Below, piece after piece: positions 8,705 through 53,839 of a DNA stretch of 54,144 nt. Every line of letters begins with the position of its first letter. Position 1 is the first letter of the stretch. Both the position numbers and the translations under genes were made by a program. The stretch lies in NCBI GenBank assembly GCA_963783575.1, contig CAWAOD010000008.1, positions 1 through 54,144 of the forward strand, in the 5' to 3' direction. The notes under the pieces were generated by a model. The model did not search any database. It had not been told where the DNA came from and saw only the letters and a list, made by a program, of their open reading frames with translations. The DNA comes from an uncultured Spirochaetota bacterium. Lineage in GTDB: Bacteria > Spirochaetota > Brevinematia > Brevinematales > JAOACQ01.

Positions 8705-8805
8705 GATAGACTGAAAGATAGATAATTATAGATAAAATATAGAAATAAAACTTTTCGGTTAGAAAACTTTTGACGATACCGCAAAAATATCCATGGAGGT
8801 TTGAA

Positions 8806-9243
8806 ATGAAAGAAACACTTAAAATAATACCGATAGTACTTTATTTTATTGTAGGAATAATTAGTTTAATAATGGCATTTAAAAGTTTATTTTCAGCCAG
8901 ATTTTTACCTTTCCAGGAAAATGCCGCCGGTAAACAATGGGATGAACTTGAAAAACCGCTTAAACTTGTTATTCTGTCATTCCTGAGATTATCCGGTTTA
9001 GGCTTTCTGATTATGTCTATCTTATTAATAATTTTTCCTATTATAAATTATTTTATCCCAAATATATTTTACAAATTTTCAATTCCTTTTGCAGCTTTAA
9101 TATATTGCACAGGACTTTTTATTATCAATTATTCTTTATACAGGAATACAAAAGCAGATACTCCCTGGAAAGGGTCTCTTTTAGCAATATTCATCATCAT
9201 AACCGGAATTATTATTTCTATTTTTAACAAGCGTGCCCCTTAA
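8806..9243 (+). CDS. hypothetical 4-TM membrane protein, paralog of 27602..28027
   Basis: GGAGGT RBS; about 77% identical to the second copy by hand alignment. Confidence 0.85.
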   Translation: MKETLKIIPIVLYFIVGIISLIMAFKSLFSARFLPFQENAAGKQWDELEKPLKLVILSFLRLSGLGFLIMSILLIIFPIINYFIPNIFYKFSIPFAALIYCTGLFIINYSLYRNTKADTPWKGSLLAIFIIITGIIISIFNKRAP

Positions 9244-9480
9244 CCAGGGCAAGCTGCTTGACCCAGGCGATGCAGTGAGCCTGTCGAACTGTGTAATACC
9301 TCGCAGCTCTGCGGAGTTTATCCCGAGCAGAGCCTGCCCTGAGTTTATCGAAGGGTCGAGGGGTTTCTACTCGAAAATGCTTTCAGTTGCGATGCACTGA
9401 GCGATGCATTGAGATTGTCGAAATGTTTATCGAAGTGTTCTGACTTTAATACCTCGAGGCTCTGCCTCGAGGATGCTTTA
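9229..9480. repeat. cluster of nested short palindromic repeats
   Basis: Five stem-GAG-N-TCGA-stem units (two pairs nested) and two TAATACCTCG-led hairpins, the second perfect (CCTCGAGGC-TCT-GCCTCGAGG, 9452-9472). Confidence 0.8.
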
Positions 9481-9818
9481 TTTTATGACTTAGAGGAATT
9501 ATAATATCCGTTTCCTATCCGCATCAATTCGCGACTTCTTATTGCTCACCGAATTTTACAACATCTTGTTGTTCGCCGAGCTGATGCGCGATATATTGCT
9601 TTAGCGACGAACATATTGTTCGCTATCTAACTAATAGGAAAATTTTTAATCCTCACAGTGAGATATTGTTTATTAGGGCAAATAAAACCGAAAAAAATCG
9701 ACTTTAATTTAGCAAGGGATAGTTTATGTTCAGTGTAAATCCACAGACGGCAGGGCTTCTTTTCGAGATACCGATCCTTTTGAATCAATTTTGAATACCT
9801 TTTCTCAACGCTTAGTTA

Positions 9819-27601: not shown

Positions 27602-28027
27602 TTAATTAAAAATAGAAATGATAATTCCAGCTATGATTATTAAAACAGCGTAAAGTGATCCTTTCCAGGGTGTATCTGCTTTTGTATTCTTATATAATAT
27701 GAAATTATTTATAAAAAGTCCTGTACAATATATTATTGCTATAACTGGAATTGAATATTTGTAAATTAAATCTGGTATAAAATAATTAACTATCGGAAAA
27801 ATTATTAATAAAATCGATAATATAAGAAAACCCAATCCAGACAGCCGCATTAATGATAGGATTACAAGCTTAAGTGGATTTTCAATTTCATCCCATGGTT
27901 TACCGGCGGCTTTTTCTTGAAAAGGTAAGTATGTATTAGAAAACAGACTTTTAATTGCCATAACCAAGCTGATGACACCAACAATGAAATATAAAACGAT
28001 TGTAATTAATTTAAGTATTTCTTTCAT
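27602..28027 (-). CDS. hypothetical 4-TM membrane protein, paralog of 8806..9243
   Basis: GGAGGT RBS; collinear with the first copy. Confidence 0.85.
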   Translation of the reverse strand: MKEILKLITIVLYFIVGVISLVMAIKSLFSNTYLPFQEKAAGKPWDEIENPLKLVILSLMRLSGLGFLILSILLIIFPIVNYFIPDLIYKYSIPVIAIIYCTGLFINNFILYKNTKADTPWKGSLYAVLIIIAGIIISIFN

Positions 28028-28056
28028 CTCAAACCTCCACGGTCCGAAAGATTTTT

Positions 28057-28674
28057 TCACCGTATAAAATTCGTTCTGACTTTTTGACTTTGTACCGGTT
28101 CATTTATTTCTTTTTTTCCGGAATGAATCGTTTTTAAAAGCCACCCCATGTTTTTACCCAGAGTCTGCATAATTTGGACACCCTCTTCATCTTTCATCAC
28201 TTCTTCGGAATTTGTACCATGAATAACATTCCAATATTGTGACGGCGCTATTATCATTTGAGATAAATTGAAATAATTGTTTATTTGCTGAAAAGTGGAA
28301 ACTCCGCCCGAACGCCGTAATGAAACTACAGCGGCGCCGACTTTATACCGCATATCAGGCCCAATAAAAAATAATCTATCAAGAAAACATTTCAATGTTC
28401 CTGCTATCCCGGAATAATAAACAGGCGAACCAATAATTAATCCATCAACCTTTTGAATTTCTTCAAGATATTCATTTACAATATCATTATTAAAAACACA
28501 CTTTTTAAGTTCCCTGCATTTGTAGCAGCCGTTACAACCCCTGATATTCTTATTACCGACCTGAACAATTTCAACATCAATATCAAATTTCTTTATTTCT
28601 TCAGAAACAATATTTAAACTTGTGAATATACTGCCGTCTTTATGCGGACTTCCATTAAAAGCTAATACTTTCAT
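28057..28674 (-). CDS. flavodoxin family / iron-sulfur flavoprotein
   Basis: NGSP, CxxCxxCx5C, GSPVYY, RRSGG. Confidence 0.9.
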   Translation of the reverse strand: MKVLAFNGSPHKDGSIFTSLNIVSEEIKKFDIDVEIVQVGNKNIRGCNGCYKCRELKKCVFNNDIVNEYLEEIQKVDGLIIGSPVYYSGIAGTLKCFLDRLFFIGPDMRYKVGAAVVSLRRSGGVSTFQQINNYFNLSQMIIAPSQYWNVIHGTNSEEVMKDEEGVQIMQTLGKNMGWLLKTIHSGKKEINEPVQSQKVRTNFIR

Positions 28675-30175: not shown

Positions 30176-30333
30176 GGGCAGTTCTAAAAACCCAAACTTT
30201 GATGGTCCCTGAGTGATTTTTGCGTTAGCAAAAATTTTATCGAAGGGACGTATTGTATTGTCGTCTCGATACATTTTCGGCTGTGCCGAAAATGTATCGA
30301 GACGACCGGTAGGCTTGGTTTTTAGAACTGCCC
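30176..30333. mobile_element. 158-bp MITE
   Basis: 17-bp perfect TIR GGGCAGTTCTAAAAACC; TAAT on both flanks (4-bp TSD); internal 22-bp perfect hairpin at 30260-30306; no ORF. Confidence 0.88.
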
Positions 30334-47966: not shown

Positions 47967-48388
47967 CGAAGAAAGAATCGCCCTACGCGGTTTCCATATC
48001 GTAGATATAATATTGTAAGATGTTGCATTATCCGATTTATTGATAAATCCTCTTTTATTATTACAATAGCGTCTCACCAAAACATCCTGTTTTGATTCGG
48101 CGCTGACGCACATCCTGTGCTAACTTAATTTACAACCTCTTATTTTTAAAAAGCAGATAATGCGCTTTATTATTTAAGTATATTTGTTTCCTTTATACAA
48201 AATCACAGGAAACCGCTGCGGGGCAGGGAACGGAGCTGAAAAAGCAACAGCGCAACCTTCGCGGCTTGGTTCCTGAGCGGAGTCGAAGGGCCAGGCCGCT
48301 TTGTAACCTGTGGTGTACAAAATTTGCATCCTGGTTCAGCACCTGCCTTTTTTCATCCGCCGGGAAATTCGGCCTTCGTAAACTCGCT

Positions 48389-49327: not shown

Positions 49328-50875
49328 ATGGCAGGAATGGTGAACAATATTATGTACCAGGAAATAAAAAAGTTGAAACTTTTGGGACGAAGTAAGAATC
49401 AGGTATCCCGGGAACTAATGATTGACATTAAAACGGTGCGGAAGTATTGGGGAATGAACGATCAGGAATACCAGAAAAGCCTGAATGAGTTTTCATACCG
49501 GGAAAAAGAATTTGACAGGTTAAAGAAAGATATTTTGGAAGTGTATGAAAAGAATGATTTCATCCACTTGAATGTATCATCGGTTCATGATTATCTTCTG
49601 GAAATAAAAGGAGAACTACCGGCGAACGAGAACACATTGAGAAATTTCGTGAACTATCTGATCGAAACCAGACAGCTCATACTCAATGGGAGGCAGCGGT
49701 ATTACACAAAAGTATCGGAACTGCCTTACGGAAGGCAGCTGCAGCTTGATTTCGGGCAATATACCGACCGATATGGAAGGAAATATTACATTTTTGCCGC
49801 GGTACTGTCAGCCAGCCGGTATAAATACGCGGCGCTACAAGAAGGGCCGTTCCGGACAGAAGATTTGATCGGCCATCTTCTGGATTGTTTCGGATATCTG
49901 GGAGGAATACCGGAGGAACTCGTCATCGACCAGGATTGTACGATGGTGGTAAGCGAGAACTCCGGGGATATAATTTACACGAAAGACTTTCAGTATTTCA
50001 TCGAAGAGATGGATTTAAAGATGTATGTTTGTCGCGGTGCAGACCCGGAAAGCAAAGGTAAAATTGAGAATGTAGTTAAATTCATCAAGTATAGTTTCTT
50101 TCCGGTAAGGGAATTTAACAGCATAGTGGAAGCAAGTGAAAGCCTGATGAAATGGCTGAAAAGGAAAGCCAATGGGAAGATTTCCCAGGCAACGATGAAA
50201 ATCCCGCTGATCGAGATAGAAACGGAAAGATTATCCTTGAGACCGCTCCGGAATTCGATATTTCGTAAAGACAGGATCGGCGCCAGGGAAGAACGAAGTG
50301 TAAGCGATAAATGCCGGATAGCGGTGGATACAAGCCAATATGATGTGCCGGAGATATACCGGAACGGTTCGGTGGATATTTACAAAACGGGAGATAAACT
50401 CTTTGTCTTTGACCGTCACAGCGGCCTGGAAATCGCAAAATACCCATTATCAGCGATTCCGGGACAGATCATCAGCAACCGGACAATGATCCGGGAAATG
50501 GGAACGACGGTTCAGAAGCTGAAGGATGAAGTAAGTGAATACTTTGAAATACCGGATTGGAAAGTATTTCTGGAAATAAATTTCAAACAGTTTCCACGAT
50601 ATGTCCGGGACCAGTGTCTTGCCGGGAGGAAATATTTTAAAGGGCAGGAAATCGATAGGGAAAAACTGGTTCAAGCTCTGAAAACGTGCATAGAAATTGG
50701 AAGTTATTCGATGAAGGATTTATGGGATAATTACCGGAATCAATTAAATATGGACCGGGATGAAATTCCATTAAAGATAGAGAAAATCATTAACCCGAGG
50801 CACGTTCTGGAAGTAGAAAAACCGGATATGGGAATGTACCGGAGCCTCTTTAAAACAATGGGGGGCCGGCAATGA
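49328..50875 (+). CDS. istA: IS21 transposase
   Basis: N-terminal HTH, QLDFG, VIDQD, ESKGKIENVV. Confidence 0.95.
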   Translation: MAGMVNNIMYQEIKKLKLLGRSKNQVSRELMIDIKTVRKYWGMNDQEYQKSLNEFSYREKEFDRLKKDILEVYEKNDFIHLNVSSVHDYLLEIKGELPANENTLRNFVNYLIETRQLILNGRQRYYTKVSELPYGRQLQLDFGQYTDRYGRKYYIFAAVLSASRYKYAALQEGPFRTEDLIGHLLDCFGYLGGIPEELVIDQDCTMVVSENSGDIIYTKDFQYFIEEMDLKMYVCRGADPESKGKIENVVKFIKYSFFPVREFNSIVEASESLMKWLKRKANGKISQATMKIPLIEIETERLSLRPLRNSIFRKDRIGAREERSVSDKCRIAVDTSQYDVPEIYRNGSVDIYKTGDKLFVFDRHSGLEIAKYPLSAIPGQIISNRTMIREMGTTVQKLKDEVSEYFEIPDWKVFLEINFKQFPRYVRDQCLAGRKYFKGQEIDREKLVQALKTCIEIGSYSMKDLWDNYRNQLNMDRDEIPLKIEKIINPRHVLEVEKPDMGMYRSLFKTMGGRQ

Positions 50876-51609
50876 TTAAAATTGTTTCACAACTGACGAC
50901 TCTTGGTCTCAAAGGGATGATTAAACGCCTTGATGAGGAACTCAGTGAAGCGGAAAAGTCGAAAGAATCCTATACCGGGTTTTTGGAAAGGCTGCTTGCA
51001 TCGGAATTGAATTATCGGGTGGATAAACGGTTCCAGAGGAATATGGCAGGAGCGCATTTCCCAGTCCGTAAGAATATCGATGCTTTTGAGTTCGGGAAAG
51101 TGAAAGGAATTTCTAAAAAGGAGATATCGGAGCTTCTGGATTTCCGGTGGTTGGATAATCATCATAATGTTTTGTTATTTGGCCCTCCAGGCCTTGGAAA
51201 AACGCATCTGGCGATAGGAATCGGAGTTAAAGCTGTCGAAAAGGGTTATATTGTGTGTTTTGAGCGGATGACTACACTGATAAAACTCTTGAAGACAGCA
51301 GATATCCAGAGAAGTTCTGTTTTCCGCCTGAATCGGATGATGAAAGCCGATCTTATCATCATCGATGAAATCGGTTATACACCGATTGAAAAGAAGGAGG
51401 CAAACCTGTTCTTTAACCTGGTGAGTGAAATGTATGAAAAGACATCGATATTGATTACATCGAATAAAGGATTTCAGGACTGGGCTGAAATGATGGGAGA
51501 TCCGATTATGACAACCGCTCTTCTCGACAGGCTATTACATCATTCCAGTATATTCAATCTGATTGGAGAATCTTACAGAATACAAAATTTAAAGAAGGAG
51601 GTTCAGTAG
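50872..51609 (+). CDS. istB: IS21 helper ATPase
   Basis: GPPGLGKTHLA, IIDEIGY, ALLDRLLHH, GESYR; overlaps the istA stop. Confidence 0.96.
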   Translation: MIKIVSQLTTLGLKGMIKRLDEELSEAEKSKESYTGFLERLLASELNYRVDKRFQRNMAGAHFPVRKNIDAFEFGKVKGISKKEISELLDFRWLDNHHNVLLFGPPGLGKTHLAIGIGVKAVEKGYIVCFERMTTLIKLLKTADIQRSSVFRLNRMMKADLIIIDEIGYTPIEKKEANLFFNLVSEMYEKTSILITSNKGFQDWAEMMGDPIMTTALLDRLLHHSSIFNLIGESYRIQNLKKEVQ

Positions 51610-52276
51610 CCAATTTCTGCCTACCCCCTGGGAAATACTACCGGTATGGGTATGGGAAAAACTCTTGTGATGGATATGGGAATTACCCTTGTGACAGGGG
51701 TGGGAAATTACCTTGTGACGGCTATGGGAAAAATCCTTGATTTTTCCAAGAATCGAACATTGATTTTTTCCGACCCTCAAGCGGGCACCCCGTCAAAAAT
51801 CAATGTTCTCAATGGTAAAAGCAACACTTTGCCCTCTGCGCCTGCCCTCGTAGCAGGCTTAGCGTAGCGGGGAGGAAACACCGGAATGTGTATCATAGCT
51901 TAATATTTTAATAAGTCTTGTTAAAAAGAACAGCCGGAAGAAAAATATTTGAATATTATTATTTATTATTTGTTTCTTTATACCAAATAGTTTTTCTTAA
52001 GTTATTTGTAGCGCCAATCATTTTATAATTATGAATATAGATAATTTTATTTGTTAGATAAATTATTTTATCCAAATAATTTACATTTGTTGTTTGATTT
52101 TTATCCTCATTTATAAAATTTTCATTTTCATTAATATAAACAAATTTATAAAAATAAGTTGTTATATTTCCACCTGGGAAAGGACCATCGATAATTTTAT
52201 TATTATCAATTTTTAAAATCCATAATTCATTATTAAATTGTAAATACCAATCAGAATAAATCTTTTCAAGTAATTC

Positions 52277-53839
52277 GGGTTTGCTGAAAAACTCCCAATT
52301 GGTTGAAATATAATGAAATATTTTAGATTTTACCTTAAAATAATGCAAGGAAAAAGTGGGAAAGCCAATAAAAACCTTGCATTTTGAGGTGAAAAATGTA
52401 CGACAGAGAAAATAAGGAAGAATGTAAGTTCGTAAACTTTTATCAGCCATTTGGCGGTAAGATGAATACCGGCAACCGATGGATAAAAATGGCGGATTTG
52501 ATACCCTGGGATATACTTGAAGAAAAATATGCGAGTCAATTCAAAGCCATCGGGCGAGGTGCAAAGAAAGTAAGGATGGCGGTTGGAGCGTTAATCATCC
52601 AGCAGCGGTTTGGCTTTACCGATGAGGAGACCGTAGCGCAGATTATTGAAAACCCGTATTATCAATATTTCATTGGCTTGAATGAATATCAGGGAAAGCA
52701 GCCGTTTGATTCTACAATGATGGTATATTTTAGGAAACGAGTAAAACCTGAAATGCTGGAAGAAGTGAATAATGCCCTGTTTGCTGAAAAGAAAGAAAAA
52801 AAGAAAAAGAAAAAAGGCAACGACGATGATGATGACCATGAACCGAAAAACAAAGGGAAGCTGTTGATGGACGCGACCTGTGTCCCCGCAGACATCAAGT
52901 TTCCGACAGACTTGAATTTATTGAATGACGCGCGGATGAAACTGGAACAGATGATTGACGAAGGTTATGCAAAGGGGAAATTTTGGCCAGTCAAACCAAG
53001 GACATATCCCCGAAAGGCCCGGAAAGATTATTTATTGGCAGCAAAGAACAAGAAATTAAGCGAGCAGAAGCTGAGGCAAGCGCTACGGAAACAGTTGAAT
53101 TATGTAAGCCGAGACCTAAGATATCTGGAAAAGATACATCCTACGGAATTGTCGGTAACACAATACGCAAGGTTGATTATCATCAAAAGACTTTACGAAC
53201 AGCAGAAAGAGATGTTTGAAACGGGAAAACACAGTATTTCAGGAAGAATAGTGAGCATATCACAGCCGCATGTCAGGCCGATAGTGAGAGGTAAAGCTGG
53301 AGCCAAAGTGGAGTTTGGAGCGAAAGTATCAATCAGTCTGGTGAATGGATATGCGTTTACAGATAAAATCAGTTGGGAAAACTTCAACGAAGGAACGATA
53401 TTGCAGGAACAGGTGGAAAAATACCGGAAACGGTTTGGATATTATCCAAAAGCGGTTATAGTGGATAAGATATACCGGACAAGGGCAAATCAGAAATATT
53501 GCAGGGGAAAAGGAATCAGATTAAGCGGGCCGCCATTGGGAAGGCCGAAGATTGACCTGAAGGAAAGGGAAAAAGTAAAAGCTCAGGAACGGAAAGATAT
53601 ATCGATCCGGAACGCGGTGGAAGGAGAATTTGGTACCGGGAAAAGGAAATACGGTTTAAGCCTGATAATGACAAAGCTTACAAACACGAGTGAATCGGTG
53701 ATAGCTGTGAATTTCTTTTTGTTAAACATCGAAAAGAAGCTTCGGCTTCTTTTGCGCCAAATTTTTATCCAGATATTTTTTTGGAGAAAAAGCAGCTTTG
53801 CCTGTGCGTAGAGTTGAACTTGCGTTTTTCAGCAAACCC
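52277..53839 (+). mobile_element. complete IS5-family insertion sequence (1563 bp)
   Basis: 16-bp perfect TIR GGGTTTGCTGAAAAAC; TAATTC on both flanks. Confidence 0.93.
52396..53811 (+). CDS. IS5 family DDE transposase
   Basis: ENPYYQYFIG, LLMDATCVPADIKFPTD, VEFGAK, VDKIY, RNAVEGEFG. Confidence 0.95.
   Translation: MYDRENKEECKFVNFYQPFGGKMNTGNRWIKMADLIPWDILEEKYASQFKAIGRGAKKVRMAVGALIIQQRFGFTDEETVAQIIENPYYQYFIGLNEYQGKQPFDSTMMVYFRKRVKPEMLEEVNNALFAEKKEKKKKKKGNDDDDDHEPKNKGKLLMDATCVPADIKFPTDLNLLNDARMKLEQMIDEGYAKGKFWPVKPRTYPRKARKDYLLAAKNKKLSEQKLRQALRKQLNYVSRDLRYLEKIHPTELSVTQYARLIIIKRLYEQQKEMFETGKHSISGRIVSISQPHVRPIVRGKAGAKVEFGAKVSISLVNGYAFTDKISWENFNEGTILQEQVEKYRKRFGYYPKAVIVDKIYRTRANQKYCRGKGIRLSGPPLGRPKIDLKEREKVKAQERKDISIRNAVEGEFGTGKRKYGLSLIMTKLTNTSESVIAVNFFLLNIEKKLRLLLRQIFIQIFFWRKSSFACA

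Follow-up and report, generated by a model that had tools for sequence, protein, structure and literature searches.

Between positions 9229 and 9480 of the window (the whole stretch of DNA that was analysed, 54,144 nucleotides), short palindromic units occur, two of which lie inside another unit of the same kind. This raises the question of whether a hairpin of this size is able to move and, if so, by which means. The explanation that we favour, with a probability of roughly one half, is a non-coding hairpin of 23-24 nt which has been inserted into repeats, genes and its own copies and which likely travels as single-stranded DNA through the action of a candidate small GIY-YIG nuclease and of host repair. 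That the unit is real and mobile we hold with high confidence.

Anatomy of the unit and its copies in the genome

The first-pass annotation had described five units in 9229..9480, and all of them can be read there in the sequence, although their true starts lie 1-2 nt earlier (9267, 9331, 9389 and 9401), with a register ambiguity of 1 nt. The recurrences that it had seen at 30205-30249 and 48271-48290 exist as well; the former, which it had called a MITE, is part of a hairpin doublet of the REP type, and members of this doublet's family flank the GIY-YIG gene at C11:87583. The features are as follows.

9223..9480, plus strand: host repeat, modular and dispersed, 60-260 nt, built as a hairpin doublet plus optional modules; 33 genome copies identified
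9236..9255 (approximate), minus strand: degenerate unit with deleted core at the 5' site of the host, read from the sequence
9267..9290, plus strand: unit 1, leader GCGATG, stem CAGT/ACTG, loop CCTG; G9291 closes the stem (stem span 9273-9291)
9315..9363, plus strand: outer unit 2, leader GTTTA, stem TCCC/GGGG (9321-9363), a CGAG..TCGAG variant; 19 module copies listed
9331..9354, plus strand: inner unit 2, leader AGCCTG, stem CCCT/AGGG (9337-9355), loop TTTA; alternative register 9333-9355
9389..9436, plus strand: outer unit 3, leader GCGATG, stem CACT/AGTG (9395-9437), loop TTTA; this unit was in turn inserted into the host repeat
9401..9424, plus strand: inner unit 3, leader GCGATG, stem CATT/AATG (9407-9425), loop ATTG; inserted between GA and G of the GAG of outer unit 3
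30205..30249, plus strand: long-loop family member, 6-bp stem, 26-nt loop containing a further hairpin; forms the first half of a doublet of the REP type; 7 genome relatives, two of which lie either side of the GIY-YIG gene C11:87583
30260..30306, no strand: partner palindrome of the doublet (self-inverted match)
48265..48290, plus strand: unit with a CGGAG loop inside a host hairpin

The host repeat overlaps the last codons of the ORF 8770-9243. These codons and the stop come from the host repeat, and the 3' ends of paralogues of this ORF (window 27602-28060; G000 C4:231359-231435) match up to 9227 and continue without it. Where this copy of the host has the degenerate unit, an intact, reversely oriented unit is found in other copies, and the same remnant is present at locus L255 of G001, a genome of the same genus. 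Most of the 19 listed copies of the outer unit 2 module have an uninterrupted loop of 4-5 nt, and the filled state with inner unit 2 recurs at C6:123390. Host copies such as G000 C11:112594-112828 and C3:88468-88700 contain other optional modules of ~21-30 nt with two different small hairpins, present or absent by copy, which are perhaps further families of micro-inserts. The window also contains an IS21-family element at 49328-51609 (transposase match NF033546, below cut-off), and the stretch near 52271-52799 has a 99.8% identical copy in G001. The GC content of G000 C7 and C17 is 52% and 49% compared with ~37% elsewhere, for which binning contamination or islands are possible reasons.

Each unit consists of a leader of 5-6 nt, a 4-bp stem, GAG, a loop of 4 or 5 nt, TCGA and the second stem arm, 23-24 nt in total; it begins ~9-10 nt ahead of GAG and stops 3-4 nt beyond TCGA. 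The core was defined as Y-GAG, a loop of 4 or 5 bases and (T/C/A)CGA-R, enclosed by a 4-bp stem. In the genome (4.9 Mb, 18 contigs), the canonical-loop core has 101 matches, 66 of them with a stem of at least 3 bp, compared with 11-14 matches and 0-2 with a stem in five local shuffles. A genome search with TGAGYYTRTCGAA gave 40 matches, against 0 for the reversed control. The looser descriptor that had been proposed initially (GAG-N3-6-TCGA, with the loop and T/A unconstrained) is only weakly enriched, with 35 copies bearing a stem of at least 4 bp compared with 7-10.

The compensatory nature of the stems, as first suggested, was confirmed by pairing above that of shuffled stem partners. Among 77 strict-core matches in the genome, taken with no stem filter, stem pairs 2, 3 and 4 are Watson-Crick in 54/77, 56/77 and 45/77, and the 45 distinct stem triplets of these matches hold 67 pairs, a value that 0/10,000 shuffles reach, compared with 39 after shuffling. 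A 12-row alignment, whose rows were hand-picked from stem-bearing copies and are illustrative, has three of five stem pairs changed on both sides. In viral contigs, a full stem is carried by 29 of 55 contexts that were taken without stem selection; scans of viral contigs with the CGATG leader gave mostly chance matches (full stem in 4/101 contexts). Of the 59 genome copies, 48 lie outside ORFs of at least 150 aa; such ORFs make up 82% of the genome.

Tandem sheared G.A pairs and GNA triloops are known stabilisers of DNA hairpins. Judging from the sequence, TGAG opposite CGAA can form such tandem pairs, and C-GNA-G is found in 53 of 92 five-base loops. The folded form would comprise a 4-bp stem, the tandem sheared G.A pairs (TGAG/CGAA), one G-C pair and a small loop, often a DNA-type C-GNA-G triloop. 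With ViennaRNA, the model of which is without sheared pairs, the nested structure is not unusually stable (z -0.4 to -0.5). A covariance-model search of Rfam returned no family for the unit, Flavo-1 included, and its identity with Flavo-1 or another Rfam RNA was rejected. Overall, movement as single-stranded DNA, which had been suggested from the window, appears probable.

Insertion, targets and spread

The nesting of two units inside other units was confirmed in the window sequence, and the genome provides a series of three states for one of these sites. Site 9389 is empty at C9:163702 and C9:587474, holds one 24-nt unit at C9:261242, C11:112769 and C11:537353, and holds a unit in a unit only in the window. 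Because the same site is found empty, singly and doubly filled in one genome, it reflects insertion and not tandem duplication. Deletion of the inner unit 9401-9424 gives the allele at C11:112769 (match start C11:112757) with 0 mismatches over 28 flanking bases; the first reading of the window had noted that such a deletion restores an intact outer unit. For 9321-9363, an exact empty allele is absent from the genome; the nearest empty loops are CAAG and CGAG, and the loop that the first reading reconstructed is one of two options. An empty allele exists in the genome for 11 of 41 units tested, every insert being 23 or 24 nt, and for none of the other 30. For unit 1, an empty site is present at C11:112649-112690 and the homologue in G001 bears two extra units, nested and in reverse orientation; for the unit at 48265..48290, no empty allele was found in the genome. 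Among 10 loci compared with G001, none was orthologous for empty or filled sites. No target duplication beyond a 1-nt overlap is seen, in line with the first impression. The stem covariation and the allele series support the view of an ultra-short, structure-defined and mobile unit.

A single 24-nt variant occurs at no fewer than 115 metagenome loci, with 101 distinct flank pairs among the matches listed. It splits a reverse transcriptase gene (group II intron-type) and a Y2 transposase gene, and in both its removal restores an open frame; the gene halves match consecutive parts of the profiles (PF00078 99-142 and 149-205; PF04986 2-35 and 84-128). Immobility, i.e. local duplication, slippage, gene conversion among repeats or misassembly, is the least probable of the explanations considered here and is largely refuted by the allele series and the gene inserts. 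It draws on the location of most copies in assembly-breaking repeats and on the existence of tandem arrays. Against it stand the exact empty alleles, the 101 unrelated flanks among the matches listed, the inserts in unique genes and the nests in isolate genomes. Moreover, the nests are arranged as A A' B' B, and their inner stem differs from the outer one and co-varies independently of it; this excludes a simple tandem duplication.

The insertion point is in front of G (or A). Among the matches listed, the base after the 24-nt variant is G in 96/101 contexts, followed by T in 74. Self-nests were expected to be the main form of insertion and to occur at a fixed point right after GAG, and neither expectation held. 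Nesting does recur, but it makes up only 14/101 metagenome contexts among the matches listed and ~10/59 copies in this genome. These 14 self-insertions use three positions, eight before the last loop G, five before GAG and one between GA and G, so there is no single fixed point, yet every one lies just before G. Other repeats are thus the first target, own copies the second, and genes are hit occasionally. A preference for hairpin loops, suggested by eye at several sites of this genome, was not supported, as 41/101 metagenome cut points lie in a predicted loop compared with 151/392 controls. A test based on repeated flanks was unusable, since 96 of 200 random intergenic 30-mers pass its control.

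The base preceding the leader equals the last, stem-closing base of the unit in 50 of 76 pooled contexts and fails to do so in 26/76; this equality creates the 1-nt ambiguity at the junction. The A/G table of the junction is 13,2;11,36 (A with A, G with G; p=2e-5), with kin that are not independent. As to the source of the closing base, two sites of this genome favour the target and three Anaerolineae-type nests favour the unit. There is no bias for the transcribed strand (13 co, 17 anti) and likewise none with GC skew (15, 20), and both orientations occur within one host-repeat strand.

The self-nesting pattern has at least 141 matches in at least 127 loci of the species collection, with both stems as long as 4 bp in 85 of those listed. 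Most of the listed rows are one Sphingomonadales form, which probably represents one inherited event; the remaining ones are from Bacteroidota, Chloroflexota, Patescibacteria, Brocadia and others, some rows being chance. On plasmids of Nostoc, Halotia and Gloeothece, the unit interrupts heptamer arrays and is once self-nested. Two stem-bearing units are present on pNPUN02 of N. punctiforme, and on its pNPUN01 the unit is not enriched (20 compared with 29 in the control). Inserts sit in Ssn-type CGTC repeats in G083 and in C/G-rich hairpins in G100, where two positions of one host family have received clean inserts. Head-to-tail arrays of units with a period of 23-24 nt and differing loops are seen at G108 C17:603-730 and C75:403-556 and at G083 C3:24631-24690. 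The 35-40 matches of G018 were excluded from the counts, since one coding stretch is copied with near-identical flanks (10/10 loci inspected). In G018 C1 (e.g. L235, L238), a core with a 4-bp stem is fixed in a multi-copy coding stretch of ~35 copies, probably an IS gene; it is either a captured unit or chance.

The candidate nuclease and rival explanations

The enzyme first thought of was an HUH protein of the RAYT/IS200-like type or another nuclease. The latter option is the better supported one, with a small GIY-YIG protein as putative enzyme. Family hairpins lie within 400 nt of 29 of 36 homologous GIY-YIG loci, on both sides in 23, and reach a density of 5.0 per kb near these loci compared with 0.29 farther out. 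At the Y1 loci, they are found near 2/13 and at none on both sides, with a background-level density of 0.19 per kb. Since hairpins flank the GIY-YIG but not the Y1 genes, an HUH enzyme is disfavoured.

In this genome, two small GIY-YIG genes are adjoined by long-stem or long-loop family hairpins; a third similar gene (L180) has flanks that fail the hairpin descriptor. The hairpins beside GIY-YIG genes are mostly such long-stem or long-loop REP forms rather than the 24-nt insert. The protein has 96 aa, matches PF01541 and has UPF0213 structures as its best PDB matches. The nuclease would be classed as a small single-domain GIY-YIG protein of a UPF0213-like sister group of Ssn. In G045 (Sphingomonas), the gene of this subgroup is flanked by GAG..TCGA hairpins, and two Ssn-like genes have other hairpins; the Ssn-like genes of G045, G011 and G083 look different and likewise have other hairpins. 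At G000 C3:144592-144852 (L171), a small GIY-YIG gene and its flanking hairpins lie, by eye, between cas4-like and cas1-like genes; compared with its paralogue, this gene contains 21 additional nucleotides, inserted in frame, and a hairpin doublet is also present at C3:142740-142810.

Among 151 genomes of the phylum (G018 dropped), the gene is present in 10/14 with at least 8 cores and in 14/136 with fewer, the genomes including kin that are not independent. Four of the 151 had fed the GIY-YIG profile, and the unit-rich count without them is 7/11. Eight unit-rich genomes belong to the class, with GIY-YIG in 7/8 and Y1 in 3/8. No intact gene of the subgroup was found in unit-rich G083, G100, G108, G114 and G046, and in unit-rich G011 it is present only as a broken copy.

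In the micro-unit, the leader lies where the long form has its CGTCA tag. SsnA has been reported to cut single-stranded DNA upstream of its hairpin, at a distance of a few bases (PMC11893778), which is where the 5' end of the unit lies. These two points lead us to propose that the micro-unit is a nuclease-site hairpin, clipped just 5' of the tag and with a shortened 3' arm. The clipped hairpin would then be re-joined elsewhere by repair, the nuclease making the nick and a ligase or polymerase finishing the join. The stem-closing base may select the target, C pairing with a target G and T with a target A. This proposal leaves the 3' end of the unit unexplained. In the accessible text of the same paper (PMC11893778), SsnA is known as a nuclease and strand transfer is not described for it.

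It is somewhat unlikely, but conceivable, that no dedicated enzyme exists. Nucleases that belong to the host repeats (Ssn-type and other small ones) would then make breaks, and the unit would be copied into these as a patch, using 1-base microhomology and template switching. The inserts in many kinds of unrelated repeat (heptamer arrays, the Ssn-type CGTC repeats of G083 and the C/G-rich hairpins of G100), the unit-rich genomes without a cognate gene, the failures of the junction rule and the head-to-tail arrays in G108 and G083 would fit such a process. It accounts poorly for fixed ends of 23-24 nt, for a leader that is conserved across phyla, for precise inserts into unique coding DNA and for the pairing of cognate hairpin and gene.

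To our knowledge, GIY-YIG chemistry is unable to join strands. HUH chemistry is able to do so, and a 5' tag with a bulged hairpin resembles the REP/IS200 logic. An HUH enzyme (RAYT/IS200-like Y1 or other) could peel off and paste the unit as a single-stranded circle, with the leader as guide and the shared junction base as cut site; the lack of target duplication, this shared base and the two Y1 genes of this genome agree with it. We nevertheless find it doubtful, given the Y1 loci and the distribution of Y1 among the unit-rich genomes of the class described above, and covariation of leader and target is not evident in the metagenome contexts among the matches listed. Even less probable is an RNA intermediate, a transcribed hairpin that returns to DNA through a reverse transcriptase or by reverse splicing. 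G.T pairs are slightly more frequent than A.C mismatches (20, 14), and tandem GA pairs are found in RNA motifs too. The C-GNA-G loops, the missing orientation bias relative to genes, the presence of both orientations inside a single host strand, the association with a DNA nuclease and the lack of an Rfam match all argue against RNA.

Relation to known repeats and significance

Small dispersed repeats of Nostoc, SDR1-8, are said to measure 21-27 nt (reportedly Elhai et al. 2008, Genome Res 18:1484). That paper and work on 'Nostoc iterated sequences' are also said to describe 24-nt inserts in heptamer arrays. As we found the unit in heptamer arrays of N. punctiforme, its cyanobacterial form has, on balance, likely been named already. 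According to descriptions in citing papers, through which SDRs are known here, they insert precisely and are possibly mobile, and SDR5, the function of which is called unknown (PMC13756078), measures 21 nt and interrupts HIP1 after its third base, ahead of the fourth (PMC4390886, PMC13756078, PMC5861425). The unit resembles SDRs in being dispersed, 23-24 nt long, precisely inserted and without target duplication, and among the plasmids searched it is present in Nostoc punctiforme (two on pNPUN02). It differs in spanning many phyla, whereas SDR-like repeats were, in the accessible text, not found outside Nostocaceae among HIP1-rich cyanobacteria (PMC5861425).

The unit is not SDR5, since the 21-nt inserts that interrupt HIP1 on pNPUN01 differ from it in sequence and lack the GAG/TCGA core. 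Five related 21-nt HIP1 inserts at NC_010631.1 163323, 179599, 299508, 319038 and 325292 are probable SDR5; on the other strand, the first six bases of these inserts are those of one leader class of the unit.

The long-stem members share CGTCA/TGTCA tags, stems of 8-9 bp, loops of 4-5 nt and doublets with CGTC-tagged REPs of families 3/4, as far as these are described in the accessible text of Di Nocera et al. 2013 (PMC3733652). The micro-unit differs by its stem of only 4 bp, its other leaders and its behaviour as an insert inside REPs, and no motif matching it was found in the supplements accessible for that paper. Ssn GIY-YIG proteins (cd10448) with their NTS/SRM hairpins are alike in having a ~95-aa single-domain gene with hairpins on both sides, an architecture that the authors liken to an insertion sequence (Chenal et al. 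2025, PMC11893778, accessible text). However, the SRM motif is present in 0/36 GIY-YIG flanks and 0 times in window 9200-9500, and in the accessible text of PMC11893778 hairpin mobility is not shown and nesting is not mentioned. REP/REPIN-RAYT and IS200/IS605 systems are also non-autonomous palindromic DNA without target duplication and with a tag at the hairpin foot; REPINs move as doublets and adjoin Y1 genes (PMC3116915), whereas the unit consists of one 24-nt hairpin and is not associated with Y1 (2/13). This kind of element is already known from the SDRs, and the long forms fall under CGTC REPs and Ssn/SRM.

Our literature searches, which covered SDRs through citing papers, returned no description of a cross-phylum unit, its nesting, junction tendency, gene insertions or enzyme link, and motif searches gave no match. 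No comparable sequence was present in the accessible parts of PMC4476775, PMC3184786, PMC3126725, PMC2703918, PMC2864571, PMC2884548 and bioRxiv 10.64898/2026.09.22.753630.

The broadest reading, which we offer tentatively and consider distinctly less likely than our favoured one, is a pan-bacterial class of 23-24-nt mobile DNA with a candidate 95-aa GIY-YIG nuclease as transposase, where one stem base picks the target (C for G, T for A), giving rise to Russian-doll repeats and gene knock-outs. If true, this would be a minimal, re-targetable system for single-stranded DNA insertion, with a chemistry new for GIY-YIG enzymes.

Ever since the cyanobacterial SDRs, it has been asked how repeats of less than 30 bases spread. 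For the unit, the ends are exactly defined, the junctions show a tendency, alleles exist in both empty and filled form, genes carry inserts and there is a candidate 95-aa enzyme, so that the question can be put to a direct assay. The unit also explains the growth of modular bacterial repeats, and it cautions that gene calls and assemblies are inflated or broken by repeats of this sort. If the nuclease completes the insertion, it would be a very small tool for writing single-stranded DNA, and if a small hairpin-cutting enzyme is what moves the unit as single-stranded DNA, the unit would be among the smallest mobile DNA elements.
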